Virus record (IMG/VR): IMGVR_UViG_3300032782_000002
Strand: one strand, 5' to 3'
Origin: a virus
Lineage: Duplodnaviria > Caudoviricetes
DNA length: 64,000 nucleotides
The notes under the pieces were generated by a model. It worked only from the letters and a program-made list of their open reading frames with translations, had not been told where the DNA came from and made no database searches. Positions 37,513 to 61,817 of the stretch are shown here, in pieces (the first letter of the stretch is position 1; each line of letters starts with the position of its first letter). The position numbers and the translations under genes were made by a program.

Positions 37513-37974
37513 CTAGCGACTCGTCTCGTGCGGCTCGTACAGGAGCACCTCGACGCGCTTGACAGTGCCGAGGATCTGCTGCGTGCTCTTGCTGACGACC
37601 GACCAGGGCAAGCGCCCGTTGCCGCACCCGAGGGCGGGCACGGCGATGCTATGCAGCGGCGTCGTCTGCAGCCAGGCGCGCAGCTTGAAGAGGCCCTCGT
37701 GGATGTCTTCGAGCCGGCTGCTGCTACGCCAGTGGTCCTTGGTCGGAAAGTAGACAATGTGCTTGGGGCGCTCGGTGCGCGCGACGACGAAGAGATCGCC
37801 CAGGTGAAGCTCGCCGCGCCCCGCCGCGCCCTCGTACTTCATCTGCTCGCGCGGGAAGCGGCGCGCGAAGATCTTGGCCAGACCGGCCCCCGATACCCCG
37901 ATGCAGTTGACCGGATTGACGAGCGCGTCGGCGCCCGACTCGAACATGTCGCCGCTGACGAGCTGCACGGTCAC
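37513..37974 (-). CDS. Macrodomain (DarG/TARG1-like ADP-ribosylglycohydrolase)
   Basis: GDMF...ALVNPVNCIGVSGAGLA...FPTKDHW...SIAVPALGCGNG; GTG start at 37974. Confidence 0.88.
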   Translation of the reverse strand: MTVQLVSGDMFESGADALVNPVNCIGVSGAGLAKIFARRFPREQMKYEGAAGRGELHLGDLFVVARTERPKHIVYFPTKDHWRSSSRLEDIHEGLFKLRAWLQTTPLHSIAVPALGCGNGRLPWSVVSKSTQQILGTVKRVEVLLYEPHETSR

Positions 37975-41971: not shown

Positions 41972-41999
41972 TTGACATCAAGTGCGCCTCGTGCACAAT
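41972..41999 (+). promoter_or_regulatory. Promoter of the HTH-cas1-cas2-array unit
   Basis: TTGACA-N16-CACAAT; 29/39 identical to the promoter at 45591. Confidence 0.7.
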
Positions 42000-42006
42000 G
42001 CGCATC

Positions 42007-42195
42007 GTGGCACGCCAGACATCGCCGAAGGCCGTGGAAGTAGATCCGCAGACGGTTGCGCGGCTGGCCGCCGAAGCCCAGGTCGATCGCCGCACGGCCA
42101 AGAAGGCCCTGACCGATGGCGTCGATGCGGTACGTGGGGAGTTCATGCGCGGGCGGCTGCGTGTCGCGGCGCAGACGCTCGGGCTCAAGTTGTAG
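42007..42195 (+). CDS. Small HTH protein (LacI-like HTH) upstream of cas1
   Basis: TVARLAAEAQVDRRTAKKAL; in-frame GTG 7 nt after the -10 box; stop 6 bp before cas1. Confidence 0.55.
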   Translation: MARQTSPKAVEVDPQTVARLAAEAQVDRRTAKKALTDGVDAVRGEFMRGRLRVAAQTLGLKL

Positions 42196-42201
42196 GGCGT
42201 C

Positions 42202-43215
42202 ATGCGCCTCACCGCGCGCGTCGTGGATGTCGCGGAGCACGGTCGGCGACTGTCGCTTGAGCAGGGCTTCCTGGTTGTCCACGACGAACGACGCGCCGAG
42301 CTTGGGCGCGTTCCGCTAGATGACGTTGGCGCGGTGCTCCTGCACGCGCAGGGCACGAGCTGTACGACACCCCTCATAGCGGCCCTGGCACACCGTGGAG
42401 CCGTGCTCGCGGTGTGTGACGGCCATCATCTACCCGTCGCGTGGACCCTGCCGGTCGGAGATCATTCGGGGCAGGCGCGCACTATCGCCGCTCAGGTGGA
42501 TGCTCCCAAGCCGTTCACCAAGCGGTTGTGGCAGTACGTTGTTCAGGCCAAGATCGCTTCGCAGGCGGACGTGTTGGCGGTGTGCGGGAAGAACCGCGCG
42601 CTGCTCGACGGTCTGGTCGGACTTGTGCGCTCTGGCGATCCGGCGAATGTCGAAGCGCGCGCCGCGCAGGCGTACTGGCCGACGTTGTTCGGGGCGGCCT
42701 TCCGGCGTGATCGCGAGGCACCGGGCATCAACGCGGCGCTCAACTACGGCTACACGGTGTTGCGCGCCTCGGTGGCGCGCGCCGTTGTCGCCTGCGGCCT
42801 GCACCCAAGTATCGGCGTCAAGCACCGTCGTGACCCGCTCGCTCTCGTGAGTGATCTGATGGAGCCGTTTCGTGCGGTGGTCGATTGTCGGGTGGCGATC
42901 ATGGCGGTGGACGGGCGCGCTGATACGAGCCGCCGCTCACGTGAGGAGCTGGTGGAGCTGCTCGGCGGTGACATCGAGGCGGGCGTGATGCGGTTCGCGC
43001 GATCGATCGGGGACGCTTACCTGACGGGTGTGTGCCCGGTGTGGAGGCGATCGGATGTGGCTGTTGGTGCTGTTCGATCTGCCGGCGACGACACGCGCGG
43101 ATCGCTGGTTAGCGTCGCGGTTCCGGAACGCCCTTCTGGCCCGCGGCTTCGAGAGGCTTCAGCTGTCGGTGTACACGCGGAGGTGCCCTGGGGCGGCGAC
43201 GACGCTGGCGGCTGA
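42202..43215 (+). CDS. cas1: CRISPR integrase Cas1, type II-like
   Basis: GRVPLDDV, GDPANVEARAAQAYW, INAALNYGYTVLRA, GLHPSIGVKH, SDLMEPFR; catalytic E/H/D present. Confidence 0.95.
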   Translation: MRLTARVVDVAEHGRRLSLEQGFLVVHDERRAELGRVPLDDVGAVLLHAQGTSCTTPLIAALAHRGAVLAVCDGHHLPVAWTLPVGDHSGQARTIAAQVDAPKPFTKRLWQYVVQAKIASQADVLAVCGKNRALLDGLVGLVRSGDPANVEARAAQAYWPTLFGAAFRRDREAPGINAALNYGYTVLRASVARAVVACGLHPSIGVKHRRDPLALVSDLMEPFRAVVDCRVAIMAVDGRADTSRRSREELVELLGGDIEAGVMRFARSIGDAYLTGVCPVWRRSDVAVGAVRSAGDDTRGSLVSVAVPERPSGPRLREASAVGVHAEVPWGGDDAGG

Positions 43216-43351
43216 TGTACGCCGTCTTTTGCCGGCGAGCGGCAGCGCGTGCCTAATCGAGCTGACGGATCTGCAGTACGAGGGGCTCGTTCGTCTGCAA
43301 GGCGGCGAGCCGCTGGTCTTTGAAAAACCGAAGCGGCTGATCTCGTTCTGA
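43055..43351 (+). CDS. cas2: Cas2, type II-like
   Basis: MWLLVLFDLP...FRNALLARGFERLQLSVY...LTDLQYE; GGAGG RBS at 43043-43047. Confidence 0.93.
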   Translation: MWLLVLFDLPATTRADRWLASRFRNALLARGFERLQLSVYTRRCPGAATTLAADVRRLLPASGSACLIELTDLQYEGLVRLQGGEPLVFEKPKRLISF

Positions 43352-43423
43352 GGTCTGAGGCCGCCTTTCTCAAGCGCGCCGCGGATGGATTGCCGTGGGG
43401 TGCTGGGGTGTTGCGTGAAGTCA

Positions 43424-45517
43424 GATGCAAGGGGATGCGATCCCCTTGTGAGTTCCAACACCGACTACCGGATGATCGTCCTGGCGACGTCGATGCAAGG
43501 GGATGCGATCCCCTTGTGAGTTCCAACGGGCGCGGCGCATGACATCCCCCGTCACTGCCGATGCAAGGGGATGCGATCCCCTTGTGAGTTCCAACACGGC
43601 CGCGCATGCGCAGAGATCGGGGCGCGCGATGCAAGGGGATGCGATCCCCTTGTGAGTTCCAACACAGGCGCGCGAAGAAGAGGGCCAGACGTCTAGGATG
43701 CAAGGGGATGCGATCCCCTTGTGAGTTCCAACACGAACATGCGGCCGGTGCGCGGATCGATCTGGGATGCAAGGGGATGCGATCCCCTTGTGAGTTCCAA
43801 CTAGCGGGCGAGGGCGGCGCGGAGCCTGCGGTGGATGCAAGGGGATGCGATCCCCTTGTGAGTTCCAACTTGATCCCGACGCATCCGATCGAGTTGACCG
43901 CGATGCAAGGGGATGCGATCCCCTTGTGAGTTCCAACTCTTTGCCGAGCGCCAGGCGCTGCATGTAGAAGATGCAAGGGGATGCGATCCCCTTGTGAGTT
44001 CCAACCCAGAGGCGCGCGCCGCTCCCGAAGTGGTCGCGGGATGCAAGGGGATGCGATCCCCTTGTGAGTTCCAACTCGCGCACCGCGTGCGTGTCCAGGT
44101 AGCTGCGATGCAAGGGGATGCGATCCCCTTGTGAGTTCCAACGCGGGGCCCGCGAAGACCGCTTGCAGGAAGAAGATGCAAGGGGATGCGATCCCCTTGT
44201 GAGTTCCAACGACTACATGACCGAGACCGCAGCCACGGTTTCGATGCAAGGGGACGCGATCCCCTTGGGAGTTTCAACCGAGGGTGGCTCCAACAGCACC
44301 ATGGGTCTCCGCTGCAAGGGGGAACGATCCCCTTGAGAGTTCCAACTGGCTGCACACAAGGCATAGGCACCGCTCGTGATCAAGGGGACTAGATCCCCCT
44401 GGGAGTTTCAACATTAGGGCCTGATAGACGTTGTGGACGGCGGCGATGCGGGGGGATTCGATCCCCCTGGGAGTTTCAACGAGTGAGACCCGAGACCAAC
44501 CCAATCCAGTAGGATGCAAGGGGGTTCGATCCCCCTGGGAGTTTCAACTGGGACGTGACGCTGACGCCGGCCGGCGGCAGATGCAAGGGGGTTCGATCCC
44601 CCTGGGAGTTTCAACCTCATGGGTGGCGATCAGGCGGGTGGGCGCGCGATGCAAGGGGGCACGATCCCCTTGGGAGTTCCAACCTCGACAAGGCGCTGCG
44701 ACGGGATAGGTGCGTGATGCAAGGGGGCTCGATCCCCTTGAGGGTTCCAACGACATGCGGGTGCCTCTCAACCACGACGATCAGTGCGAGGGGACGTGAT
44801 CCCCTTGAGGGTTCCAACTTGATGCCGCGGTCGGCCGATGCTGACACGGAGATGCGAGGGGGATGAGATCCCCTTGGGAGTTTCAACTCGGCCACGCACA
44901 GCAAGACGTCGCGGTCTTCGATGCAAGGGGATGAGATCCCCTTGGGAGTTCCGCCGTGAGGTGGCTACCGCTGCGCTCGTGAGCTTGCGGTGCAGGGGAT
45001 GAGATTCCCCTCGTGAGGTCCAACCCCATGGCCTTTTCGATCAACTCGTCGCGCACGAGATGCAAGGGGACGTGATCCCCTTGATGGTTTCAACGTGAAC
45101 CGCACAGCGGAGGGCTAGACGTACGGGATACAAGGGGGCGATCCCCTTGAGATGTTTCAACTGGTTGGCGAAGCCGACGGCGAACGCGATGCAAGGGGAT
45201 CCCCTTGAGAGTTTCAACCAGGCCGCGCAGCAGGGCCGCGCGCATCACGGATGCAAGGGGGTGTGATCCCCTCGCGAGTTCCAACTCGATCATTGTCACC
45301 GTGCGGGCGAGGACCAGGCGGATGGCAAGCAAGGGGAGTGATCCCCTTGATAGTTTCAACTTGCGGACGTACGCGCGCACCTGGTTTCAACTGGAGTGCC
45401 TCGGGCGCGTTGCCGTCGTGCTCGGACGCAAGGGGATGAGATCCCCTTGGGAGTTTCAACGGCATCGTGGCACCGAGCGGGAGGAGCAAGGGGAGCGATC
45501 CCCTTGAGAGTTTCAAC
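43424..45517 (+). CRISPR. CRISPR array: ~31 repeats plus one remnant, 36-nt repeat, spacers mostly 31-34 nt
   Basis: Repeat GATGCAAGGGGATGCGATCCCCTTGTGAGTTCCAAC; first 12 copies identical (43424-44210), later copies degenerate; 72-bp leader after cas2. Confidence 0.98.
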
Positions 45518-45590
45518 AACACGGCGTACACCCTCGTGTCGCTCACGACGACGGCGCCCGCGCGCCTCTACACCGTGGTGCGAAGCGGGC

Positions 45591-45618
45591 TTGACACTGC
45601 GCGCGCCGCGGGCATAAT
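45591..45618 (+). promoter_or_regulatory. Promoter of the Cascade-helicase operon
   Basis: TTGACA-N16-CATAAT, near-consensus in GC-rich DNA. Confidence 0.75.
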
Positions 45619-45681
45619 GCGCGTCATGTCGTGGCGGTTGATTCGAAGCGTATCAACGGCTACTACGGCCAGGAGGATGTG

Positions 45682-45858
45682 ATGACGGCCCGTCAACCGC
45701 AGGTGCGTGTGCGTAGCAAGGGCGTGCACAAGATCATCATCGAGATCGACCTCGCGCCCGTGGCGGCGCCGCGCAAGACGGCCGCGGAGCGGTCCGCCAT
45801 TGCGAAGAAGGCGGTTGCGACGCGTCGTCGTCGTGCCGCGGAGCGTGCGGCGTCGTGA
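45682..45858 (+). CDS. 58-aa basic protein heading the Cascade operon
   Basis: AGGAGG RBS at 45671; RKTAAERSAIAKKAVATRRRR; GTGA overlap with cas5. Confidence 0.65.
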   Translation: MTARQPQVRVRSKGVHKIIIEIDLAPVAAPRKTAAERSAIAKKAVATRRRRAAERAAS

Positions 45859-46625
45859 CGGCGCCCAGGGTCTTTTGCGTGCGCGCCACGGCGCCGTACG
45901 CGTGCTGGACCAACCCGGCGCTCACGGCCGAGAGGTTCTCGTACCCCGTGCCGACTCCCGTCGGGCTGGAGGGGGTGCTCAAGTCGGTGTTCTGGCGCAA
46001 GGGCCTGCGCTACCAGATCCAGTCCATCGGCATCTGCGCGCCGATCCGGCGCCACCTGCTGCGCCGCAACGAGATCGACCACACGCCCCGTGCGGATGCG
46101 AGCACGGGGTTCAACGGCGACCGGTACGCCGTGCAGCGCATGACCAGCCGTCTCAAGGACGTGGACTACCGCGTGGAGTTCGTACTCGATCTCGACGACG
46201 GCTACAGGGATCGCTCGCTGCTGATGAAGTGCGAGGCGATGCTGTCGCGCTACCTGGATCGCGGCCACTGCTTCCAGCAGCCGTTCTTCGGCTGCAGGGA
46301 GATGGTGGGCGATGTCCGGTGGGCGGAGACCTCCGATCCGACCCCGATTGCCGAGACGCGGCCGCTCGGGCGGATGATCTACGGCTACATCTGGGACAAC
46401 GCGCGCAACCGCCGTGACGTCGTGCTGGAGTACGAACCGCACCTCGATCACGGTGTGGTTCATGTCCCGCCGCGCGGCGAGGTGTTGCGTCTCAACGGGG
46501 TGGCGCGCCCCGGAGTCGCGACGCCGCACCCGCCAGCGCATCCTCGACGGCCTCGCGCTCGTCCTGGGACACGTCCTGCCGGTCGCTCGCATCTGCCCAC
46601 CAGGTCGAAAGGAACTGCGGCGTGA
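45855..46625 (+). CDS. cas5: Cas5c (Cas5d), type I-C
   Basis: ACWTNP...ERFSYPVPTP...FWRK...RRNEI, LKDVDY, GHCFQQPFFGCRE. Confidence 0.93.
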   Translation: MTAPRVFCVRATAPYACWTNPALTAERFSYPVPTPVGLEGVLKSVFWRKGLRYQIQSIGICAPIRRHLLRRNEIDHTPRADASTGFNGDRYAVQRMTSRLKDVDYRVEFVLDLDDGYRDRSLLMKCEAMLSRYLDRGHCFQQPFFGCREMVGDVRWAETSDPTPIAETRPLGRMIYGYIWDNARNRRDVVLEYEPHLDHGVVHVPPRGEVLRLNGVARPGVATPHPPAHPRRPRARPGTRPAGRSHLPTRSKGTAA

Positions 46626-48289
46626 GGCTGCTCCAGGCGCTGGCGGAGTTCGCCGACCACAACATCCCTGACCCGACGTTCGAACGGCGGCGCATCGCCT
46701 ACGTCGTCGTGGTGGCGCCGGACGGCTCGCTGGTCGAGATCGAGGAGCACGGGCAGGACGAGCAGGTGCCGCGCATCGACGGTGGCACCAACGCCGTCAA
46801 CCCCAAGTTCCTCGTCGACACGCCCCAGTACGTGTTCGGCCTCGGCGAACAGCCCGCGGATCGGCGCGCGAAGTGTCACGCGGCGTTCGCCCAGCTCATG
46901 GCGGACCTGGCGACCCAGTGTCCGGATGCGGGCTTGAAGGCTGTCGCGGCTTTCATGCGCAAGCCGGTGCCGGCGAAGGCCAAGGCGCTGTCGCTCAAGG
47001 GTACCGAGTGGATGACGTTCCGGCTGCAGGGCGACAAGAGGTTCGTGTTCGAGCGGCCGAAGGTGCGTCGCTTGTGGAACGCCCGCATCGCGGCAGCGGG
47101 CTCCGATCTCAAGGCCGTGTGCCGCGTGACAGGCCGCACCGCTCCGATCGCGATGCTGCACCCCACCATCGCGATGCCAGACAGCAAAGGCGCCAAGCTG
47201 GTCAGCTTCAACCTCGATGTGTCCCGCTTCGAAGGTCGCAAACAAGGCGCGAACTTCGAGGTGTCGCAGGACGTGGCGCGCGCGTACGGCGCGGCGCTCA
47301 AGTTCATGCTGGAGCGCAAGGAAGACGGGCAGCTCAGGTCGGCCGCCTTCTTCAAGGGCGACCTGAAGGGCAGCGCCATGGGGACCGTCGTGCCCTTCAC
47401 CAAGGACGGCCGATCCATGCAGCCGCTGCTCGACGTGCTGATGCTGCCGTTCATCAAGGACGAGCGCGAGCGGTCTGCGCGTCTGGAGCAGGCGTGGGCG
47501 ACGATGACCGCCTGGTGCGCCGACGACGAACTGCTGCACGTCGTGATCCTCAAGAGCAACCAGGCCCGCATCATGGTGCTCGACTACTTCGAGCGGCCGC
47601 TGTCGGAGATCGCGGCCAACGTGTTGCAGTTTCGCCGCGAGGTGCTCGACGAGCTTGCACGCCCCGAGTCCGAGACGCCGCGTGCCGTGACGCTCGCGTA
47701 CCTGCTCAACACCATGATGGGTCCGGACGGACGCATCACGCCGTTCGCGTTGGGGATCCTGCGCGCCATGTTGTGCGGGGATCCGTACCCCCAGCCGCTC
47801 GCCTGGATGCGCGGTGAGAGCGGTGACGTATGGCGCCGGGCTATCCGGCGCCGCAGTCAGAAGGAGCCCGTTTCCATGAGTCTCGATCCCGACAACCCCG
47901 ACCAGGCGTACCAGCGCGGACGGCTGGCCGCGATCATCAAGGAACTGCACTACGAGGTGACTCGCGGGCGCGGGCAGTTGACGCTCGTGCCGTCGATCGC
48001 GCAGGCGGCCAAGATGCCCTCGTATGGCATGCAGCTGCTGCAGCGTCGCGCGCTCCAGTTCATCGACGCGCTCGAACGGCGCAACAACCGCGCCTCCGCC
48101 GCCGCGTACTACGAGGTCGCGGGCAAGATCGGGCCGGCGCCTATCCGCCACACGCGCGCGCAGGAGGAGTCGTTCATGCGCGGCTTCGTGGATCAGGTGC
48201 AGGCGCTGCGCGAGCGCATCCGCCGCTACCAGGAGGAGAAGAACGCTGTGGACGCCGTCGAAGGCGTCGAGGCCCCCGCGGCCGAGTAG
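46622..48289 (+). CDS. cas8c: Cas8c (Csd1), type I-C large subunit
   Basis: LLQAL N-terminus, FLVDTPQYVFG, CRVTG...LHPTI, GAKLVSFN, C-terminal LDPDNPDQAYQRGRL. Confidence 0.9.
   Translation: MRLLQALAEFADHNIPDPTFERRRIAYVVVVAPDGSLVEIEEHGQDEQVPRIDGGTNAVNPKFLVDTPQYVFGLGEQPADRRAKCHAAFAQLMADLATQCPDAGLKAVAAFMRKPVPAKAKALSLKGTEWMTFRLQGDKRFVFERPKVRRLWNARIAAAGSDLKAVCRVTGRTAPIAMLHPTIAMPDSKGAKLVSFNLDVSRFEGRKQGANFEVSQDVARAYGAALKFMLERKEDGQLRSAAFFKGDLKGSAMGTVVPFTKDGRSMQPLLDVLMLPFIKDERERSARLEQAWATMTAWCADDELLHVVILKSNQARIMVLDYFERPLSEIAANVLQFRREVLDELARPESETPRAVTLAYLLNTMMGPDGRITPFALGILRAMLCGDPYPQPLAWMRGESGDVWRRAIRRRSQKEPVSMSLDPDNPDQAYQRGRLAAIIKELHYEVTRGRGQLTLVPSIAQAAKMPSYGMQLLQRRALQFIDALERRNNRASAAAYYEVAGKIGPAPIRHTRAQEESFMRGFVDQVQALRERIRRYQEEKNAVDAVEGVEAPAAE
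47876..48289 (+). CDS. cas11: Cas11 small subunit, internally translated from cas8c
   Basis: AAGGAG at 47861-47866, then in-frame ATG (MSLDPDN), the arrangement known from type I-C. Confidence 0.7.
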   Translation: MSLDPDNPDQAYQRGRLAAIIKELHYEVTRGRGQLTLVPSIAQAAKMPSYGMQLLQRRALQFIDALERRNNRASAAAYYEVAGKIGPAPIRHTRAQEESFMRGFVDQVQALRERIRRYQEEKNAVDAVEGVEAPAAE

Positions 48290-48345
48290 GTGCCCGGCTG
48301 CAGCCGGTGAGAGTCCCCACGAAGGCGACATAGGGAGAGACACAC

Positions 48346-49347
48346 ATGCTGAAAACGAATGTGAAGCGCCGCGATCTCGTGCTGCTGTACGACGTGATGG
48401 ACGGGTCCGTGAACAACGATCCCGACACCAACGCGCCCCGCCAGGATCCCGACACCGGGATCGGCTCGGTCAGCGCCGAGTGTATCAAGCGCAAGATCCG
48501 TGACGAGGTCGCACGCGAGAAGGCGGGCGAGCCTGGTTACGAGCTGCTCGTGGCGCGCGGTGCGGTGCTCAACCGCGCCATCCGCGAGGCGTACGAGGAG
48601 GCGTCCGTCAAGATCCCGGACGCCCCGAAGAAGCCCGCGAAGGCTGCGAAGGCGGGTAAGAGCGGCAAGTCGGCGAGCGCGCCCAAGGACGACGAGGTGG
48701 CCGAGGACGAGGAGGTCGGGCAAGAGCGCGACCAGCGCGTCTCGGCCGCGGATGCTGCGCGCGGCAATAGGCGTCTCGTCGAGAAGTTCTTCGACGCGCG
48801 CTGGTTCGGCCAGGTCGTGACGGGTGTCGGTGCGGGGCGCATCACGGGTCCGGTGCAGATCCAGGAGGCGCGCTCGATCGTGCCGGTGCGCATCGACGAG
48901 GTCGCGCGTACGCGCGTGGCGACGACGAACGAGGAGCAGTCCAAGGCCCAGAAGGGGCTCAACCAGAATCGGTCGCGCAAGGCGCGGTTGTCGCATGCTC
49001 TCTACAAGCAGATGCTGCACATCTCGCCCTTCCAGGCGCTCACTACCGGGTTTTCCGAAAAGGACTTCGAGGTGCTGTTGAAGGCGCTCAAGTCGATGTT
49101 CGAGAACGATCGCTCGACTTCGCGCGGCATGGTCTCGATGCGTCAGATCGTCGTGTTCGAGCACACCGATCCGCTGGGCAGCGCGCGTGCGGTCGACCTG
49201 CTCAACAGCGTGCGCGTCGTGCCGCAGGTCGAGGCGCCGACGTGCTTCGAGCAGTACACCGTGACCATCGATCGCAGCACGCTCCCCGCGGGGGTGATCG
49301 TCACAACGGCGTGGCCGGAGGCGACGGCCTCCGCGGCGGCCGAGTAG
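48346..49347 (+). CDS. cas7: Cas7 (Csd2), type I-C backbone
   Basis: LLYDV.DG..NNDPD...PRQD..TG.G...CIKRKIRD, FFDARWFGQV, TGPVQI, TGFSE.D, MFENDRS..RG. Confidence 0.95.
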   Translation: MLKTNVKRRDLVLLYDVMDGSVNNDPDTNAPRQDPDTGIGSVSAECIKRKIRDEVAREKAGEPGYELLVARGAVLNRAIREAYEEASVKIPDAPKKPAKAAKAGKSGKSASAPKDDEVAEDEEVGQERDQRVSAADAARGNRRLVEKFFDARWFGQVVTGVGAGRITGPVQIQEARSIVPVRIDEVARTRVATTNEEQSKAQKGLNQNRSRKARLSHALYKQMLHISPFQALTTGFSEKDFEVLLKALKSMFENDRSTSRGMVSMRQIVVFEHTDPLGSARAVDLLNSVRVVPQVEAPTCFEQYTVTIDRSTLPAGVIVTTAWPEATASAAAE

Positions 49348-49361
49348 GAAGACGCGCCGTG

Positions 49362-49390
49362 GGCGCCCGGCGTGTGGTGCGCCGGGCGCC
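49362..49390 (+). other. GC-rich hairpin between cas7 and the helicase
   Basis: GGCGCCCGGCG-TGTGGTG-CGCCGGGCGCC, 11-bp stem, no U-tract. Confidence 0.6.
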
Positions 49391-49413
49391 GCTGCGTTAT
49401 GAGGGACCACACG

Positions 49414-51753
49414 ATGGGTATCAAGCGGCTGCACTACTACCAGCAGCGGCTGGTCAAGCAGTTGTTGGCTGTGCCGGCGACGCAGCAAGAGATCGGGGTG
49501 GTCTACCCGCAGGGCTCGGGCAAGACGCTCATACTGTTGTGCTACGCGGCTCTCGCTCTTGGGTCGCGTGTCAGCCACGTGCTCGTTGTGTGCCCGCAGG
49601 GGCAGATCTCGGACGCGTGGCGCCGCCCAAGTGGCCTGTGGAGTGTGGGTGGTGGCCTCTGCGTGAACCTGGATGATCTCGTGGACCTCGCCGGTGAGGG
49701 GCTCACGGGCACTGTCGAGAATGTGTGCGGCTACCTGAAGTTGCCGCGCGCGGATCGCGTGTTGATCGCGCAGCACGCGACGCTCACGTGGTCGCGACCA
49801 GGCAGCGACGGTCCGGCACTGCTCGACTCTCTACCCCAAGATCTGTCCGGCTACGTGCTGGTCATCGACGAGGCGCACCGCAACCGCGCGGTGGGGCTGT
49901 CGCGGATCCGTACTGTGTGGTTGGCGCGCGGCGGTACGGTCATCGACGTGACCGCGACACCGTATCGTACCGACAGGCAGCCCGTGATGGGGCCGACCGC
50001 GCGCGTCTTCTCGCGTAGCTACGCCCTGCACGCGGTTGAGGGGTACGCGCCGAGCAACATCGAGACGGCCATCATTCCGGTGCCCGTGCCAGCGGCGGCG
50101 ACCGACGGCCTGGACAAGGATGCGTGGATCGAGCACGTCTGCGATCGGGTTGTCGCCCAGTGGTCTCAGGACGGTCGCCCGAAGGCGGTCGTGCACGTGC
50201 CCGCCATCGCGCGGGAAGACTCGGGTGAGGACAGCGGCGAGCCGTTCTTGCATGAGAAGATCGTGAATCGGCTCGGCGATCTGTTTCGCGCGCGTGGGGT
50301 CCCCGTGTTCGCGGCATTCGATCGACAGCGCTCCGATATGGTGACGGCGCAGTTCATCGAGATGCTCCGGCAGGAGCGGGATCGCGCCGCGCAGGGCTAC
50401 GCGGCGTCCAAGTACGATGTCATCCTGGCCGTGCGGCGGATGGATGAGGGGACCGACTGGCCGTTCTGCTCGGCCGTCTACTTCATCGACATGCCTGGCG
50501 CGCAGTGGATCATCGAACAGGTCTTCGGCCGCGCGACGCGCGACAAGCGCACCATCCCCGGCTACCCGGCAGCGTGGGTCGATCGAGTCCGCGTCGCATT
50601 CTTCATCGCCGACGCGGACACCGCCGTGCGCAAGCACCCGCTGTCGACGTTCATCTCGGCGTGCATGCTGGCCGATCACGGCATCTCGCAGCGCATCGCG
50701 AACCTGAGGCGGATCAAGACAAGCTTGGAGCGCGCTATCGGGCACCGTGCCGGTCGGATCGTGCGCCAGATCGCCGAGATGTGCGACGTACCCGCGGACG
50801 TCAGTGCGTTGATCGAGGGCTCGATCATCGCGACGTCTTCTCGGGATCCGGCTGTCATCGAGCGCCACCTGGCTGCGTCGGGCAAGCCGGTCGCGCCGTC
50901 CGTGCTCGCGGGGTATCTGGCACTGCGTGACGGATCGTCGGCAGAGGCGGTGGCCGGCGCGTACGTAGGTCGCCACCGCGACCGCGATCCGTACGGGCTG
51001 GCGGATCTCGACACGGCGTTGCTCGCGGCCTTCGAGGAGCCGAGCAAACAGTTCGCGCACGGTCGCGTCACGGCCGCCTATGACGAACGTACAAAGGCGA
51101 TCATCGCCTCGCTCGCCAGGTTCGACGCCCAGGAGGCTTCCGAACCGGCTGAAGTGGCGCGCAAGTACCTCCAGCTCGCGGCCACGCCGTTGGATCTCAC
51201 CGACATCCAGGTGGCCGTGCGCAAGTTTGTTGACGAGCGCCGCGTCCATCCGATGTATCGGGACGGTCCCGTGCGACCCGGTCTCATGTGGTCCGAGGTC
51301 GTGGCCGCCGTCCTTGAAGGTGCGCGTGGACTACCGCGCTACGATTCGTGGAACCACTTCTGCCGTGACGCGCTCGGGGCAGACGCGAAGGACGCGAAGG
51401 ATGCCTGGGCTGACGACTACGCGGCCGTGGTTGGGGTCGAGTACTTCGATCTGACCGATGACGCATCGGTGCGGGCGAAGATGATGCGCGCGTACCCCAA
51501 GCTCAGCTCCAAGGATGCCCCGGCTCTCTGCCGCGCGGTGCACTTGTTCGGGGCCGATCTCGTCGCGAGTCTTGGTGCGGAGGCGGCCGTGCCGCTCGGG
51601 GACAAGAAAGTCTGGAAGCAGCTACAGGGTCAGAACCGCCGCGCCATCGACAAGCTTCGGCGCGACATTCTGGCGCGCCGGGATCGCGGCGAGACGTTTC
51701 AGGCCGGCGACGTGCGGCGCGAGCTGAAGCGGCACATCGACACGGCAGGTTGA
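49414..51753 (+). CDS. SF2 DEAH helicase (ResIII/HsdR-like), CRISPR-associated, no HD domain
   Basis: LHYYQ, PQGSGKT, LVIDEAH, TATPYR, MDEGTDWP, EQVFGRATR; ~330-aa C-terminal extension; start could also be 49399. Confidence 0.88.
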   Translation: MGIKRLHYYQQRLVKQLLAVPATQQEIGVVYPQGSGKTLILLCYAALALGSRVSHVLVVCPQGQISDAWRRPSGLWSVGGGLCVNLDDLVDLAGEGLTGTVENVCGYLKLPRADRVLIAQHATLTWSRPGSDGPALLDSLPQDLSGYVLVIDEAHRNRAVGLSRIRTVWLARGGTVIDVTATPYRTDRQPVMGPTARVFSRSYALHAVEGYAPSNIETAIIPVPVPAAATDGLDKDAWIEHVCDRVVAQWSQDGRPKAVVHVPAIAREDSGEDSGEPFLHEKIVNRLGDLFRARGVPVFAAFDRQRSDMVTAQFIEMLRQERDRAAQGYAASKYDVILAVRRMDEGTDWPFCSAVYFIDMPGAQWIIEQVFGRATRDKRTIPGYPAAWVDRVRVAFFIADADTAVRKHPLSTFISACMLADHGISQRIANLRRIKTSLERAIGHRAGRIVRQIAEMCDVPADVSALIEGSIIATSSRDPAVIERHLAASGKPVAPSVLAGYLALRDGSSAEAVAGAYVGRHRDRDPYGLADLDTALLAAFEEPSKQFAHGRVTAAYDERTKAIIASLARFDAQEASEPAEVARKYLQLAATPLDLTDIQVAVRKFVDERRVHPMYRDGPVRPGLMWSEVVAAVLEGARGLPRYDSWNHFCRDALGADAKDAKDAWADDYAAVVGVEYFDLTDDASVRAKMMRAYPKLSSKDAPALCRAVHLFGADLVASLGAEAAVPLGDKKVWKQLQGQNRRAIDKLRRDILARRDRGETFQAGDVRRELKRHIDTAG

Positions 51754-51754
51754 G

Positions 51755-52444
51755 ATGGCGAGCAACTTCACTTCCGCAGAGAAGATGAACTACCGGCTGC
51801 GCAATCTGCGCTGGATGCGCGACGAGCTGGTGATGCTCTGGGGCGAGGACGGGCGCCTCAACGCGGACTACTGCGAGCTGAGCGGCGAGTCGGGAGGGCT
51901 GACAGTCGAGTTGTTCGAGGCACACGACGTGTTCGGTGCGGGGCGTGTGCTCGTCGGGGTGGATCGTGATCCCGCGTTCATCGCGGTCCATCAAGCGCGC
52001 TACCCGCGGCACACGTGGCGTGCCGGCGAGCTGTACACCGTGTTCAGCGACGCGGAGTTCGATGGGGTAGCTGTGTGGAACGTGGACGCCTCTAGTGAGG
52101 TGGGCAGCCCGCGTCTCGAAGCGGGCGTGAAGGGTCTCGCGACACGCATGCGTGTGGCACTGGAGCGCCACCGCGAGATCGGGTTCATGCTCAACTGCTG
52201 CCTCGATACGCGTCGCGGCGGCCCTGTAGGTTCCAGGGTGGTCGCTCACGCGGAGATGATCGCGGCGGCGTTCACGACGGCGCTCGGGAGGCGCCGCACC
52301 GTGGAGCCCAAGCTGCTCCTGCCGCCGGACAAGGACGTCTCGCTGCTGGATGATCCGGCCTACGAGGACTTCGAGTTCGGGTGCTTCGACGTGCACTGCA
52401 CCCGGACGCTGCGGATGATCAACCTGCGGTTGGCACTGGTGTGA
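51755..52444 (+). CDS. Hypothetical protein, possible SAM-dependent methyltransferase fold
   Basis: Starts 1 bp after the helicase stop; YCELSGESGG, LVGVDRD and VWNVD resemble Rossmann MTase strands. Confidence 0.4.
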   Translation: MASNFTSAEKMNYRLRNLRWMRDELVMLWGEDGRLNADYCELSGESGGLTVELFEAHDVFGAGRVLVGVDRDPAFIAVHQARYPRHTWRAGELYTVFSDAEFDGVAVWNVDASSEVGSPRLEAGVKGLATRMRVALERHREIGFMLNCCLDTRRGGPVGSRVVAHAEMIAAAFTTALGRRRTVEPKLLLPPDKDVSLLDDPAYEDFEFGCFDVHCTRTLRMINLRLALV

Positions 52445-52799
52445 TGGGCGTGTGGTAGAATCGACGTCGTGGCTGTCACTGCGCACGACGTCGTCAATGC
52501 GGCCCTCGCCGGCTCGGCGCTCAAGCTCGTGCCGACGCGCGGCCTGTCGCAATCCGAGGTGACCTTGCTCTCGCAGTGGACGCCGGGGGCGCTGCTCACC
52601 GTGCCGAAGGCGGCGCTGCAGTCTTTCACGCCCGACGCCATCGCCGCACGCCTGTCGCCGACCGCGCTCGCGCAAGGCTGGGTGCAGGATCTGGCGACGG
52701 CGGCGATCGTCGCGGCGCTCGCGTAGTTGATTGAATCCTGATTAGCGTCGCGATCTCGCGTCCTTGCTCCAAGTCGCCGGCAGGTCGTACACTCTGCTC

Positions 52800-53399
52800 A
52801 TGCCGCGGCAGGGCGACATGAAGTTTCTTGCGGGCTGGCCCCTGCCGGCAGGCAGCAAGTTCAAGATCTCGGTGCGGACGCTCTCGGGACGCCCCGATCT
52901 CTGGTACGTCTACGGGCCGCGCGTCGTGCGCGGCGGGCGCGTTGACTACTCGACGACGGCAGCCTACGGCGTCATCCACAAGAAGACCGGCAAGATCACT
53001 GCCTGGGGCGGCCGCGGCGCGGCGGGCGAGTTCTACAAGACCTACCTGGAGACCGTCCGCGATCGGCTCAAGCGCCGGCTGACCATCGCCAGCCGCTACA
53101 CCGGCGAGCCCCTCGTCGTCGAGGCCCGCAAGGCGGTGCGCCACGGCAACATCGTCATCACGCCCCCGCCGGGTCCGAGCGCGGCCATCCGTCGCTTCAG
53201 CGTCGCGCGCGTCCATCTCAATCGGGGCGGCTACGACAGCCGCGGGCGGTACTTCGGCGCTGCGTTCCATCCCGGCGAGCGGCTCTGGCACGTCGAGGAC
53301 CGCGAGACCGAGCGCGGCATGTACGTGCGCGCGGAGACGGCGAAGAAGGCGCGCGCCGAGGCCATGATGCGCCCGCACTACTGGGGAGGTTGGCGGTGA
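52800..53399 (+). CDS. Basic hypothetical protein (RHGN motif; LNRGGYD module)
   Basis: VRHGN; RVHLNRGGYDSRGRYFG. Confidence 0.55.
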   Translation: MPRQGDMKFLAGWPLPAGSKFKISVRTLSGRPDLWYVYGPRVVRGGRVDYSTTAAYGVIHKKTGKITAWGGRGAAGEFYKTYLETVRDRLKRRLTIASRYTGEPLVVEARKAVRHGNIVITPPPGPSAAIRRFSVARVHLNRGGYDSRGRYFGAAFHPGERLWHVEDRETERGMYVRAETAKKARAEAMMRPHYWGGWR

Positions 53400-54205
53400 C
53401 ACTCGCTCAGGCCAAGGCCGCGCTGCGTCCGCTCGGGATCGTGCTCACCAAGAAGGACGGCGAGTACCGCGTCAACCTCTACAAGGGGCGCGAGGCCACG
53501 GCCTACTACACGAGCGATCTCGACGACGCGGTAGCGACCGGCAAGAGTATGGCGCGCCACGGCAACCGTCGGCGCACGCGGCACGGCAACACCGAGCTGC
53601 AGCCGGGCCGCTTCTACGGCTACAAGGGCCATCAGGTGTGGCTCGATCGCGCGCCGGGCGGCGGCTACTTCGCGATGATCCAGGGCACCGCCCTCGAAGC
53701 GCGCGGCGCGACGCAGGGCGAGGCGTTGAAGAAGCTGCGGGCCAAGCTCGACGCCGGCAACTTCGGCAACAGCCCGGAGCGGATCATCATCGAGAAGTCC
53801 CGCGGCCAGTACATGGTCCACCTCGATCGTCCGACGGCGCGCTACTACGTCGTGTCGTCGTACCCCGAGGCGTTCGCAATGGCGAAGGGCATGGAGTTCA
53901 GCGGCCGCGTCATCGTCGACAAGACCGGCGAGGGGTTCGGCAACCGTGGGCGCCGCGTGCGGCACGGCAGCGCCATGGTCGCGCCGCACTACGCGACCTC
54001 GACATCGGCGGCGCAGCAGGCAGCGATGCGCGCTCTCCACCTGGCGTCCGAGCACCTGAGCAACAACCGGCAGGCCGAGACGTACCTCAATGTCGCCCGC
54101 CGACTGTACAACAGCGGCGACTTCGATCAGGCGCGCAAGCGCGCGCTGGCGAGCCTCGACTGCTCTATCCGGTACGCCGAGCGGCGTCGTGGGCGGAGGC
54201 GCTGA
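53396..54205 (+). CDS. Modular basic hypothetical protein with repeated RHGN/FGN linkers
   Basis: EYRVN...AYYTSDLDDAVATG; ARHGN, TRHGN, VRHGS. Confidence 0.6.
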   Translation: MTLAQAKAALRPLGIVLTKKDGEYRVNLYKGREATAYYTSDLDDAVATGKSMARHGNRRRTRHGNTELQPGRFYGYKGHQVWLDRAPGGGYFAMIQGTALEARGATQGEALKKLRAKLDAGNFGNSPERIIIEKSRGQYMVHLDRPTARYYVVSSYPEAFAMAKGMEFSGRVIVDKTGEGFGNRGRRVRHGSAMVAPHYATSTSAAQQAAMRALHLASEHLSNNRQAETYLNVARRLYNSGDFDQARKRALASLDCSIRYAERRRGRRR

Positions 54206-55359
54206 TGGGCTGGCTCTCCTCGCGCTCCGAGCGCACCGGCCCGCGCTACGATCCGCATCGCCCGTGGCTCGTGGTGGGCTACCGACCCGGGGGCGGCCGG
54301 GCCAAGAGCGTGCACTTCTTCGGCTCGCAGGCCGAGGCCGCGCACCATCTGCGTCAGCAGCTGCGCGAGCAGCGCGAGTACGAGCTGGACGCGCGGTACG
54401 TCTACCTCATCAGGCACGTGACGGGCGGCCCGTCGCAGTGGTGGGTGCTGAGCGACGCCATGCCGCGCTACGAGTGGGAGCGGCTGGCCCGCACGCAGGC
54501 GCGCGCCGCATCGAGTTCGCGCTACGGAATGGCATCGAGGAGGAGTCGGTAGATGGGTCACCCCTTGTTCCCGCGCGTCGTCGTGTACCTGTGGAAGACC
54601 GGTCCCGGTAGGTACGATCCAGTTCGGTACGACGTCGCTGTCACGGTACAGTCGTACCCCGGCGGCCCGTGGGTGACGGTGGTGCGCGACAAGGGGAGTA
54701 GCGCCACCGAAGCGCGCGGGATCGCTCACTTGCTGGGCAGGGCGTGGGAGAAGAGGGCGGGCGCTCCGGGGCAGTACGAGCTGGTGCACGGGGAATCGCC
54801 GGAGACGCGAGGGGCGTATGGCTCTCGTCGTCAATGGTCACGCCGCGGGCGGTGATGGCTGCGCAGCCGCCCATCAGTGGCGCTGCCGTCCAGGCCGCGC
54901 TCACCGAGATCAGCACGCAGACCCCCGAGCAGATCGAGGGCGCGACGGCGCTCAGGTGGGGCGCCCGCGCGCTCGCGGCCTGGGCGCTGTGCAACGCGCA
55001 GCCGGTCGGATCGGCCGGCTACATGTTCTGGTATGCCCAGGCGATAGCCATGAAGCACGAGGCCCTGGAGCACGCCGGTTGGGGTCCGGCGGGGCTCGTC
55101 GACGCGCTCAAGACCCAGCTGGCAGGTGTCCCATGATGAGCAGGCTGTTCGGCAACCGCAAGTACGAGTGCCGTGCCCACGGCCACGGTCGCGAGCGCGT
55201 CGTCGTGCACGACAAGAAGTGCCGTTCGAGCCGGCCGCTCTGCAAGTTCCGTCGTAAGACATGCTACTGCTCAGCGCTACACTACCCGCACCGGGCAGGG
55301 TCTGTTCGTGGCTGTCGGGAAGGCGGCATCCCCGAAGTGATCCTGCAGTCTCGCAGCTA

Positions 55360-56334
55360 TCAGCATGCGTCGCATGCGGCTGTGTGGCGGTCCCGTAGCT
55401 CGCGGGCTGCGCGCCGTCGCTGATCTCGATTGACTCCCGGCACACGGTTGGCGAGCGCCGGTGATGGGCTCTCGGTGAGGGCCCGCTCGACGGGCCAGCC
55501 GCGTCGCAGTCGTTCCACAACAGTTTTCACGTTGAGTCCAAGGTGACGTGCCCAGGCACACACGGTGCGTGTCTCGCCGCGGAACGTGATTGTGTTGTGC
55601 CGTGGCGGCATGGTGACGGCCCGCTCGGCATCCCAGCCGGCGACGAGACGCCGCTGGATTAGCGCCGCGCGCACGCCCAGGCGCTCCGCAAGCTCAGCAA
55701 TAGTGAGCCTCTCGCCGCGGAACTCGACGGTGTGGTTGGTGCGTTTGTTACGTGCTTGCTGGACGAGCGTCGCCCATCGCACATTGCCGGGTGCGTAGTC
55801 CCCATCGCGATTCGGCCACCGATCGAGGGTGTGCGCCATAGACGGGCGCGGTCCTACGGCCAATAGGAACCGCTCGAATCCGCCGCGCCCGCGCCACGCC
55901 GACGCGACTTGCACACCACGGCCACCGTAGGATGTGTAGGCTGTCACATTCGGATTGGTGCATCGTTGGATCATGCTCTTCCACACTGTGTACTCCGGGC
56001 TTTGGCCGGTGCGGCGACTGTGCCCGTGGCGCAAGGGACCGACGGGTGCCGCGCCGCCGGAGCTGAGGTTGAGGCCACGCGGAGTGCGGCAATCGAGATG
56101 TGCTATCCACCAGATCTCTGTCGCGGCTGCCAGTGCGCGGTCATCGACGCGCTCAAGCTCCTCGTGGGTGAAGGTGTGCTTGCCGTGGCGTCGAATCGCG
56201 ACGCCGAGTAGCCCGCCGACGCCTCGCGTGGCGGCGAAAACATGGTCGCGCCAGCGCTGCGACAGCGACTGGGATGTGAGACCCACGTACGCCTCGCCGG
56301 TAGGTACGCACGTGATGCGGTAGACGGTAAACAC
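55360..56334 (-). CDS. Homing endonuclease-like protein: GIY-YIG plus HNH-type domain
   Basis: TVYRIT...AYVGLT...RWRDH; YGGRGV...TLDR...DYAPGNVRWAT...QARN; C-terminal HTH-like repeats. Confidence 0.8.
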   Translation of the reverse strand: MFTVYRITCVPTGEAYVGLTSQSLSQRWRDHVFAATRGVGGLLGVAIRRHGKHTFTHEELERVDDRALAAATEIWWIAHLDCRTPRGLNLSSGGAAPVGPLRHGHSRRTGQSPEYTVWKSMIQRCTNPNVTAYTSYGGRGVQVASAWRGRGGFERFLLAVGPRPSMAHTLDRWPNRDGDYAPGNVRWATLVQQARNKRTNHTVEFRGERLTIAELAERLGVRAALIQRRLVAGWDAERAVTMPPRHNTITFRGETRTVCAWARHLGLNVKTVVERLRRGWPVERALTESPSPALANRVPGVNRDQRRRAARELRDRHTAACDAC

Positions 56335-56343
56335 GTGGCCTAA

Positions 56344-56778
56344 TCAGTCCGAGACGGTCTGCGTGCTCAGTGCCAGCGCGCTGTTGCGCGTCACCGCGAG
56401 CGCCACGAGCATCACGACCGGTGCGGACAGTAGGCCAATCGCGCCCGCCATCGGCCACGTCGCCCCCAGCAGCTTGGCCGTGAGCAGCCCCGGAATCGGC
56501 GCCATGCCGTACAGGATGCTGCGCTGATCGGTCGGGCTGAGATCGCGCCACATGGTCACGACGCCCCCGGAGGTGACTTCGAGCACTTGCGGCGGTGCGA
56601 TGGCACCGAGCGCCTTGGCATGGACCGCCGCACGATCCCAGTCGCCCTGCGCGAGCGCCTCTTCGAAGTGGCTGGCGTGCAGACCCGCCTGGAACGCGCG
56701 CTGCTCGCTGGGTGAGAGACCGGACACGTACGCCCGCATCGATGCGATGGTGGTCCGCAGAGCATCCGCCAGCGTCAC
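56344..56778 (-). CDS. Membrane protein
   Basis: Two hydrophobic C-terminal segments. Confidence 0.45.
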   Translation of the reverse strand: MTLADALRTTIASMRAYVSGLSPSEQRAFQAGLHASHFEEALAQGDWDRAAVHAKALGAIAPPQVLEVTSGGVVTMWRDLSPTDQRSILYGMAPIPGLLTAKLLGATWPMAGAIGLLSAPVVMLVALAVTRNSALALSTQTVSD

Positions 56779-56821
56779 GCTCCCGAGCGTACCACGATCG
56801 TCGCCGCGCGACGCCTATCGA

Positions 56822-59076
<2,255 letters not shown>

Positions 59077-59104
59077 GGAGGGTTTCGGGAGGCGGCGCAC
59101 AGTC

Positions 59105-60454
59105 ATGACGGATGTACAGATCGAGATCGGAAGTGGTCGGGGCAAGATCGTCCTCGCGATCCCGCCCAACGCGGTCGGTCCGAACGCGGCGTGGTCTGTG
59201 GCTGACTGGTACGTCGATCCCGTGAGTGGGGACGACAGTCGCGACGGCCTGACACCGTCCACGGCGGTGCGAACCATCATGGGCGGCATCATCGCGCGCT
59301 GGGGCACGACGAGCCCCATCCTGAAGCAGAACACCACGATCCATCTGCTGAGCACCGAAACGGCTGGGCAAGAGGACGTCGTGCTCTCGCCCATCGTGAC
59401 GCAGACGGCGTGGTTCGCTGTCGTGGGCGTGCCGAAGCTCATCGCCAGCTTCTCGCTGGGGGCGGTCACTGCCAAGGCGCGCGGCAATCCGGGAACGCTT
59501 CTTCAGGCCGCGGGCTTTACGGCGCCCGGACTGGCTACGGGCCAGCTCGTCGTGAACACGACGTCCGGCAAGCAGAGCGAATGCTGGATCTACGCGCTGG
59601 GCGGCGGCGTCGCCACACTCTCGCAGCCGCTGGTGCCCGTCACTCCCGCCGCGGACGCGTCGAACTTTCCGGCATCGCCCCCCGCACAAGTCAACACGTG
59701 GGCGATCAACGACACCGTCGAGGTGTACGAGGTACCGCTGCTGAATCTGAAGGTCTGGCAGCCTGCCGGCGGCGACACGTCAGCCGCTTCGATCGGCGGT
59801 GTCGCATGGCTGCAGAACGTCTTTGTTCCGGATGTTGCCGGGACACCCGGCTACAGCTACCTGGCGGTTACCGGAACCATCACAGGGTGCGTGCCGTGGG
59901 TCGTCAGCTGCCGCATCCAGCCCTACGTGGAGATGCTCGGTCAGTCCGGCGGCGGCGTGCTCGGTGGCTTCGCCGTCAACTGTTACCTGGAAGGCGGCGC
60001 TCAGGTCGAGAACGCGAGCATGTGGGCGGGTGCTTGCCTGCTCTACGGTGTCGGTCTCGGCACGTTCGGTTCGATCGATGGCGACGCGATCGTGGAGTCG
60101 ATCGGGCTGTACGGCGCGGACAGCGCGTTTGTCGGGGCGGTCTACGTGCACACGTCGTACACCTCGTATGGAGGCGGTTGCGGAAAGCTGGATCCCACGG
60201 CGTACGGTACGGGCGCGCTCTGGGGCCCGGCAAGTCTGGCGCTCACGGATCGGTCGACGCTGCAGCTCGTCGGCGGTACGTGGGTCGACTGTCTCTTCCT
60301 CTCTCCGCTCACGATCGAGGGTGTGGGTACGGGCACGAGCTACGCGGGTGGCATCTGGACCGACGGCATCGACCTCACACCCACCAACCTCGACGCGCAC
60401 AGCGGCAGCCTGCAGAACCCGCGCACGAACTGCGGCTTCTTCCAGAACGCGTGA
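59105..60454 (+). CDS. Fibre/spike protein paralog A
   Basis: WYVDPVSGDDSRDGLT motif; colinear with the next gene. Confidence 0.7.
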   Translation: MTDVQIEIGSGRGKIVLAIPPNAVGPNAAWSVADWYVDPVSGDDSRDGLTPSTAVRTIMGGIIARWGTTSPILKQNTTIHLLSTETAGQEDVVLSPIVTQTAWFAVVGVPKLIASFSLGAVTAKARGNPGTLLQAAGFTAPGLATGQLVVNTTSGKQSECWIYALGGGVATLSQPLVPVTPAADASNFPASPPAQVNTWAINDTVEVYEVPLLNLKVWQPAGGDTSAASIGGVAWLQNVFVPDVAGTPGYSYLAVTGTITGCVPWVVSCRIQPYVEMLGQSGGGVLGGFAVNCYLEGGAQVENASMWAGACLLYGVGLGTFGSIDGDAIVESIGLYGADSAFVGAVYVHTSYTSYGGGCGKLDPTAYGTGALWGPASLALTDRSTLQLVGGTWVDCLFLSPLTIEGVGTGTSYAGGIWTDGIDLTPTNLDAHSGSLQNPRTNCGFFQNA

Positions 60455-60461
60455 GGGACCG

Positions 60462-61814
60462 ATGACGCGCATCTTTCTGGGCGGCGGTAACGGCTTCGTC
60501 GAGATCCCGGAAACGGTCTCGCCTGTCGTCCCGAACCCGACGTGGGCTCAGGCCGACTGGTATGTCGATCCGGTTCACGGCGACGACGACGCGGATGGTC
60601 TGACGACCGGTACGGCGGTCCGCACCATCATGGGCGGGATCGTGGCCAAGTGGGGCACGACGTCTCCGGTGCTGCAGCAGACGACCACGATCCACTTGAT
60701 GGCGACGCAGACGCTCGGCCAGGAGTTCGTGGTTCTGCAGCCGACGCGGGTGAAGGGCACCGCGTTCATCATCGACGGCACGCCCGGACTGCGCCCCATC
60801 GCCACGTTCAACCTCGGCGTGATCACGCCGAAGTCGCGCGTCGGGGCGGGCTCGCCGCTCAAGTCCACCGGGTTCACCGCACCGGGTCTCGATGTCGGAC
60901 AGCTCGTGGTCAACGACATCACGGGTACCCACTCGTTCATTCAGGCGCTCGCAGGTGGCACGGCGACGCTCGCCCAGCCGCTGGAGTATCAGACGCCGCA
61001 GTACACCCCGCAGCCGACCGAGGACGATACGTGGACGGCAGGGCAGCAGGTGACGGTCTACGAAGTGCCGCTACTCAACCTGGAGGTCCTGGCGCCGGCC
61101 GGTGGCGACTCGACGGACTACACGACCAACGGCATGACGTGGGTGAACGCGATCCACATCCCGGACAACGGGGGTACCCCGGGCAACAGCTTCTTCGCGG
61201 TGCAGCTCACCAACCAGATCGTCAACTTTCAGGACTGCGTGTTCGATCCGTTCATGACCTCGCAGGGCGGCGTGTTTACGCACCATTCGGGGCACTTCTC
61301 CAACTGCGCTTTCAACAGCGGCGGCGAAGTCTCGAACGTGTCCGTGAACGGCGGGTACAGCAACCAGTACCCGCTGACGCTCGATGAGTGGGCCGTCGCA
61401 GACCTCGACCACATCGCCAGCGCCGGCTTCAATCCAGGCGGAGCGTTCTGCTTCGTCGGGTACCTCTACGTGCCCGGCACAGCGCCGACGATCTTCTGCT
61501 ACCCCGGCACGAACCTCATCATCGACGACGATCTCAACGGAACGCCCGGGGCGTGCCTGTACGGTGGGGCGGCCCTCACTGTCGGCGCGAACGCGGCCGT
61601 CTTGCAGCGCTCCGGAGGCACCTGGGCGAATCGGTTGCAGCTGACCGGCACGCTCAGCCTCATGGACTCGGCGGGCCCGGTGACGACAGGATCGAGCTAC
61701 GCGGCCGGAGCCTTCACCGACGGTGTCGCGATCAACACGACGAACCTGGACGCACACGGCGGTCTGCAGAATCCGGTCACGGGGGCCAGGTTCGCCATCG
61801 CTATAGGGCCATAG
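60462..61814 (+). CDS. Fibre/spike protein paralog B
   Basis: WYVDPVHGDDDADGLT motif; ATG at 60462 with a GAGG RBS. Confidence 0.7.
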   Translation: MTRIFLGGGNGFVEIPETVSPVVPNPTWAQADWYVDPVHGDDDADGLTTGTAVRTIMGGIVAKWGTTSPVLQQTTTIHLMATQTLGQEFVVLQPTRVKGTAFIIDGTPGLRPIATFNLGVITPKSRVGAGSPLKSTGFTAPGLDVGQLVVNDITGTHSFIQALAGGTATLAQPLEYQTPQYTPQPTEDDTWTAGQQVTVYEVPLLNLEVLAPAGGDSTDYTTNGMTWVNAIHIPDNGGTPGNSFFAVQLTNQIVNFQDCVFDPFMTSQGGVFTHHSGHFSNCAFNSGGEVSNVSVNGGYSNQYPLTLDEWAVADLDHIASAGFNPGGAFCFVGYLYVPGTAPTIFCYPGTNLIIDDDLNGTPGACLYGGAALTVGANAAVLQRSGGTWANRLQLTGTLSLMDSAGPVTTGSSYAAGAFTDGVAINTTNLDAHGGLQNPVTGARFAIAIGP

Positions 61815-61817
61815 CAC

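Follow-up and report, generated by a model that had tools for sequence, protein, structure and literature searches.

How can a CRISPR-Cas locus that joins adaptation genes of type II with effector genes of type I-C acquire spacers and act on its targets when no Cas9, Cas4 or Cas3 stands beside it? This question is raised by a locus in a 64,000-nt stretch of DNA (the window) of the viral record IMGVR_UViG_3300032782_000002 (Caudoviricetes), in which cas1, cas2 and a CRISPR array are followed by the genes of an I-C Cascade (cas5c, cas8c and cas7c), a helicase and a 229-aa protein, referred to below as the partner. Judged from its sequence, the locus is read with moderate confidence as a helicase-associated I-C variant of phages that gained an adaptation module of its own and that would silence its targets with the help of the helicase, without cutting. 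The layout of the effector half is already published; the new elements are the in-cis adaptation module of II-C origin, its sharing with Cas12f-like loci and the evidence from spacer lengths.

The type of each half was analysed with hidden Markov model (HMM) profiles. Cas1 passed the type II model TIGR03639 with 212.7 bits (cut-off 120) and failed the I-C model with 51 bits against a cut-off of 385, and the best PADLOC model for Cas2 was Cas2_II (E 1e-24). In the effector half, Cas5c passed TIGR01876, Cas7c passed TIGR02589 and Cas8c passed the Pfam model Cas_Csd1 (227 bits), its score with TIGR01863 being 196.6, below the cut-off of 218.65. The identity of Cas7 to I-C references is only 34-37%; its Lys/acidic insertion is common to the related locus L007 and, by eye, to a published phage protein (SR-VP, below). 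An internal cas11 is known in type I-C (PMC11127173), and the internal start at 47876 carries a Shine-Dalgarno-like hexamer 9 nt upstream and has a corresponding start in L007. These results are in accordance with the original prediction, which had assigned Cas1 and Cas2 to type II and Cas5, Cas8 and Cas7 to type I-C; the cross-class combination of a II-C-like Cas1 beside I-C effector genes holds.

The origin of Cas1 was further revealed by its relatives. Among 1.84 billion representatives searched, three Cas1 proteins stood clear of all others (65, 52 and 48% identity). In a tree built by a quick search without bootstrap, they form with the window Cas1 a four-member clade (SH-aLRT 98) nested among II-C references, and the Cas1 of type I-C is split from it at a support of 100, far away in the tree; a position of Cas1 inside the I-C clade is thus rejected. 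In two of the three relatives (L025 and L026) the cas1 gene lies after a gene for a Cas12f/V-U3-like protein of ~580 aa and before cas2 and an array of 36-nt repeats, and no Cas9 was found in the flanks of these two loci; the third lies on a chimeric-looking contig of 1.5 kb. Because the nearest readable relatives adjoin Cas12f-like genes, this Cas1 is an offshoot of II-C that is used with no Cas9 next to it. The best match outside the clade lies downstream of a Cas9 fragment. The paradox seen by the original prediction, that type II adaptation normally depends on Cas9, is weakened by these relatives.

The two Cas12f1/V-U3-like loci share with the window, besides the Cas1-Cas2 clade and the repeat length, a two-residue deletion near the catalytic His, the overlap of cas1 with cas2 (167 nt in L025) and spacers of 31-32 nt, whereas their effector is a single TnpB-like protein and their repeat sequences are unrelated to that of the window. 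By eye, their Cas12f-like proteins (L025:2668-4407 and L026:7461-9206) seem to lack the RuvC-I aspartate, and that of L026 seems also to lack the RuvC-II glutamate; they are possibly effectors that have lost their nuclease activity and possess a Cas1-Cas2 of their own. At L026:9857-10984, a frameshift in cas2 places the C-terminal half of Cas2 in the reading frame of Cas1, so that three assemblies (L026-L028) encode a fusion of Cas1 with part of Cas2.

The link between the two halves was sought in the array. Its repeats are about 36 nt long, the 12 nearest to cas2 are identical, and they decay away from cas2. Each consists of a 4-nt 5' end, an 8-bp stem, a 5-nt loop and an 11-nt 3' tail, and the decayed repeats keep the hairpin, many of them also the 11-nt tail. 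Spacers of 31-34 nt make up 26 of the 30, with a mode of 32 nt. The corresponding lengths are 31-32 nt in arrays of the Cas1 clade, 30 nt in II-C references, 33-35 nt in I-C references and 35-41 nt (mode 36) for the Cascade relative closest to the window, near which no cas1 lies. Since the spacer lengths fit the arrays of the Cas1 clade and not that of the closest Cascade relative, the Cas1-Cas2 of the window probably built the array. The repeat, by its form, is that of the Cascade lineage, because this relative, with no cas1 in its vicinity, agrees with it in the 36-nt geometry and the 3' end (4/8/5/8/11, identical in L001/L007) and because the hairpin persists in the decayed repeats; the 36-nt repeat as proof of a type II origin was rejected on the same comparison. 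At the trailer end (45182-45517) the units carry deletions, with a repeat remnant near 45381-45391 and spacers of 20, 39, 64 and 23 nt.

Regarding the effector, the helicase matches ResIII/Helicase_C with Walker A, DEAH and motifs III, V and VI intact, and no HD or other nuclease domain matched, which agrees with its original description as a non-Cas3 helicase. Its C-terminal half is predicted to be helical at low confidence (pLDDT 60), and the model of this half gave no fold match; nothing in it points to a hidden nuclease. No DinG or Csf model matched among the window proteins. HMMs built from annotated Cas3, Cas4 and Cas9 proteins found no match in the 64-kb window, as had been claimed. The accompanying claim on cas6 and csn2 stands for the locus, none of whose genes matched them, and not for the whole window, at which no such search was aimed. 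A tracrRNA anti-repeat was not found in the window either, where no repeat match longer than 10 nt occurs outside the array and no Rfam match was obtained.

The partner has no Pfam match, but its predicted structure (pLDDT 83.6) has the seven-strand Rossmann fold of class I S-adenosylmethionine (SAM) methyltransferases (Foldseek E 4e-5; VIA Z 12.9, rmsd 3.6, 174 aligned), so that the likeness to a methyltransferase proposed from the sequence is borne out by the model. Methyltransferases of small molecules and of RNA gave the best matches, with identities of 3-14%, which is a likeness at the level of the fold only. G44 (motif I), D70 (motif II) and D111 (strand 4) are invariant in 10 homologs, motif I being non-canonical.

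The helicase family was found beside a Cas3-less I-C Cascade at five loci, namely the window, GCA_017886315.1, GCA_041443065.1, L049 and SR-VP_PHAGE_CIR_63_141. These show four gene orders, and their helicases are 28-43% identical. In the metagenome-assembled genome (MAG) GCA_017886315.1, the parts are split between two contigs, the first with cas5-cas8-cas7-leader-array and the second with array-helicase-partner, which end in the same repeat; the identities to the window are 56, 42, 60, 43 and 49% for cas5, cas8, cas7, helicase and partner respectively. In GCA_041443065.1 the order is helicase-254 aa-cas5-cas8-cas7, followed by a gene-free gap of 2.2 kb, and in L049 (CAZVEM010000175.1, a Nannocystaceae MAG contig) the helicase sits in the cas3 slot; both were recovered by helicase-only searches. 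The available DNA of these three loci contains no cas3, cas1 or cas2. Scans of viral or metagenome contigs with Cas7, the partner and P0030 gave no matches, and a BLAST search of the window with the small protein encoded after the partner gene of L001 gave no match either. L049 also carries, between its cas genes, arrays of ~11-12-nt repeats with a period of 35-37 nt (954-1329, 7441-8026, 8803-9238 and 10909-11394); this repeat resembles the I-C 5' handle alone, is too short for a hairpin, and is possibly that of a distinct minimal-repeat CRISPR variant.

Al-Shayeb et al. 2020 described a huge-phage I-C variant in which a helicase replaces Cas3 and both Cas1 and Cas2 are missing (PMC7162821, Extended Data Fig. 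9). SR-VP_PHAGE_CIR_63_141 was reached by a short helicase motif search of the supplementary genomes of that paper and is not confirmed as one of the two genomes in its text. It has cas5-cas8-cas7-helicase-231-aa ORF in the same order as the window and, by eye, the same helicase motif region, the Cas7 insertion, a similar partner and no Cas3 or Cas6. The claim of a new effector module is thereby withdrawn, as the same Cascade-helicase-partner module is present in that 2020 genome. The window differs from the published variant in having Cas1 and Cas2 of II-C origin, where the variant has neither, and in an array that precedes the Cascade genes; the partner is annotated only as hypothetical in the published genome.

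Comparison with other known systems places each part of the locus. Canonical type I-C (Desulfovibrio vulgaris, Neisseria lactamica) has likewise Cas5c, Cas8c with internal Cas11, Cas7c and a hairpin repeat with an 11-nt tail, whereas the window is without Cas3, Cas4 and Cas1c and its repeat measures 36 nt rather than 32 nt. With type II-C it shares the Cas1/Cas2 family, the cas1-cas2-array layout and the 36-nt repeat. A precedent for the service of a non-Cas9 array is given by Hoikkala et al. 2021, where a II-C Cas1-Cas2 supplies a type VI-B array in trans (PMC8092290); in contrast, the module of the window lies in cis, has no Cas9 or anti-repeat in the window, serves a class 1 effector and has spacers of 32 nt against 30 nt. 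No report of a II-C Cas1-Cas2 in cis with a class 1 effector was found in open-access text, nor did the searched passages of the 2025 classification (PMC12669027) and of Altae-Tran 2023 (PMC10910872) show the combination. Helicase-based silencing without cutting is documented for the CasDinG of type IV-A (PMC11656645, PMC11519345). Type IV-A resembles the window as a class 1 complex of mobile elements with a non-Cas3 superfamily 2 (SF2) helicase and no nuclease; the window differs in its I-C Cascade instead of Csf, a ResIII-like helicase instead of DinG, its own Cas1-Cas2 and the methyltransferase-fold partner.

Under the preferred reading, the Cas1-Cas2 of II-C origin, from a clade used by mobile elements without adjacent Cas9, would insert spacers of ~32 nt at the leader on the cas2 side. 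Without Cas4 or Cas9, the choice of spacers would probably be blind to the protospacer-adjacent motif (PAM), and selection or Cascade-assisted capture may enrich the useful ones. The array would be transcribed on the + strand and Cas5c, as in type I-C, presumably cleaves the repeat at the hairpin base, so that a 5' handle of 11 nt remains. The complex of Cas5c, Cas7, Cas8c and Cas11 would then bind double-stranded targets, probably beside a T-rich 5' PAM. The nuclease-less helicase may be recruited to the R-loop and travel along the DNA, so that, as with CasDinG, rival phages or plasmids would no longer be transcribed or replicated while their DNA stays uncut. The partner, co-inherited with the helicase, is probably a SAM-binding cofactor. 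The system may be self-contained, as the original prediction proposed, and may act through the helicase. On the PAM, one data point comes from a Logan contig of a relative (L002:1-936), which passes from an old spacer straight into an unrelated gene of the relative's own sample with a 5' flank of TTG; from its motifs we take this gene to encode a P4/D5-type primase. The best explanation of the junction is that the assembly fused spacer and gene at an exact protospacer, and the case agrees with a T-rich PAM of the I-C type and with the targeting of small mobile elements.

Several observations weigh against this mechanism. No target was found for any spacer of the window in the window itself, the fetched loci, GenBank phages, plasmids or 401 Myxococcota genomes; the best matches have at least 4 mismatches and no common flank, nothing being above chance. 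At its catalytic positions Cas5c reads K-C, against the K-H of several references; the lysine is kept, and the references vary there too. Among the Cascade-linked loci, cas1-cas2 is present in the window only, and no partner stands beside the L049 helicase within the 12.7 kb available. The search for Cas3 and Cas9 covers the 64-kb window; the other ~157 kb of the contig and the host lie beyond it. The helicase and the partner are also found as a pair whose flanks contain neither Cascade nor array (L003, L004, L009, L042-L044, L053, L055 and L084), on Planctomycete-type chromosomes and on other large phage-like contigs, and the pair has a CRISPR-independent role. From this occurrence without CRISPR we infer an older two-gene helicase-partner module that Cas3-less I-C Cascades recruited. 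Two of these loci show further features. A second, broken copy of the methyltransferase-fold gene lies between the helicase and the intact copy at L003:14711-15620, beside PemK and AAA_21/DUF4276 genes, and at L009:17767-19531, on a large phage contig, ~25 irregularly spaced copies of a repeat of ~25-40 nt, not a regular CRISPR array, lie 5 kb from the pair.

The CRISPR-free pairs, about ten loci in all, also lend themselves to an explanation, unlikely in our estimate, in which Cascade alone is an RNA-guided roadblock, or borrows a host Cas3, and the helicase and partner form a phage conflict module of their own that tends to end up beside it. It is favoured as well by the helicase tree, in which the Cascade-linked helicases are scattered; a single group of window, L001 and L049 was weakly rejected (p-AU 0.042, with long branches), and with it a single origin of all Cascade-linked helicases. 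As these fall on more than one branch, Cascades either recruited the module repeatedly or frequently lost an old link to it. However, the pairing recurs at five loci in four gene orders, with divergent helicases and no cas3 in the available DNA, and this repetition therefore argues for a function rather than chance.

A more doubtful proposal makes the partner the real effector, delivered by Cascade and helicase to methylate or mark the target DNA. Its class I fold, its invariant residues and the tight coupling of its gene to that of the helicase fit such a role, but a target-recognition domain is missing from its 229 aa, neither a DPPY/NPPY nor a PC motif was seen, its fold matches point to small molecules and RNA, and it was not detected at L049. 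About equally improbable is a relic status of cas1-cas2, left by a displaced Cas12f-like system, with the spacers coming from the host or another adaptation module. The other readable members of the Cas1 clade do adjoin Cas12f-like genes, Cascade relatives persist without nearby cas1, and the third-position GC content (GC3) of cas1/cas2 is 0.78-0.79 against 0.90 for the Cascade genes, which suggests a later arrival. The deep extension of the Cas1 reading frame into cas2 also speaks for a relic, but the overlap is common to L025, the catalytic residues of Cas1 are intact, and old and new spacers alike share their length with the arrays of the Cas1 clade, whereas those of the closest Cascade relative measure 36 nt. 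An assembly chimera is ruled out on the available tests, as two other assemblies reproduce DNA of the locus: positions 39414-61753 recur in an ENA contig with a single mismatch and 44586-61753 in a Logan contig with none, though both may derive from the same reads.

The cut-free silencing variant with its own adaptation module thus remains the preferred reading. A bolder version of it, which is rather improbable, would make the locus a self-sufficient cross-class system, in which the Cas9-independent II-C Cas1-Cas2 is a plug-in memory module of large phages, serving either Cas12f-like proteins or a Cascade with an RNA-guided translocase and active methyltransferase delivery.

The co-oriented gene order of the locus was confirmed as predicted, and its features are summarized in Table 1. 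The first ORF, earlier labelled HTH, had no match in the family scan. Three sigma-70-like sites were observed against 1.2 +/- 1.0 expected, which is weak evidence alone.

Table 1. Features of the CRISPR-Cas locus, in window coordinates
Feature	Coordinates	Strand	Remarks
Sigma-70-like promoter upstream of adaptation half	41972..41999	+	10/12 match
Small ORF, 62 aa, possible regulator	42007..42195	+	
Cas1, II-C-derived clade	42202..43215	+	catalytic E/H/E retained
Cas2, type II-like	43055..43351	+	161-nt overlap with 3' end of cas1
Leader, 72 nt	43352..43423	+	inferred from array polarity
CRISPR array	43424..45517	+	31 repeats / 30 spacers
Sigma-70-like promoter upstream of effector half	45591..45618	+	11/12 match
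Small basic ORF, 58 aa	45682..45858	+	no match in family scan
Cas5c, presumed pre-crRNA nuclease	45855..46625	+	
Cas8c	46622..48289	+	
Probable internal Cas11, 137 aa	47876..48289	+	in-frame ATG inside cas8c
Cas7c	48346..49347	+	with Lys/acidic insertion
SF2 ResIII-like helicase/translocase, 779 aa	49414..51753	+	
Class I Rossmann methyltransferase-fold protein, 229 aa	51755..52444	+	starts 1 nt past helicase stop

The window is part of a contig of 220,885 nt and is dense in small ORFs; from its size, gene density and relatives we infer a virus origin. Outside the locus, four large co-oriented ORFs at 56887-63851, the first with collagen-like repeats and two of them apparently paralogous, encode probable fibre or surface proteins, and an ORF at 37513-37974 resembles, by eye, a macrodomain (DarG-type) protein.

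With its seven genes, the locus is a compact and seemingly complete form of a phage CRISPR variant described in 2020 and reportedly named type I-X in Al-Shayeb 2022; no functional test of this variant was found. Two questions become directly accessible to experiment here: the effect that a Cas3-less Cascade combined with a foreign helicase has on its targets, and the way in which PAM-compatible spacers are supplied by a Cas1-Cas2 of the type II family in the absence of Cas9 and Cas4. Should the partner be active at the targets, the system would be a natural RNA-guided modifier.

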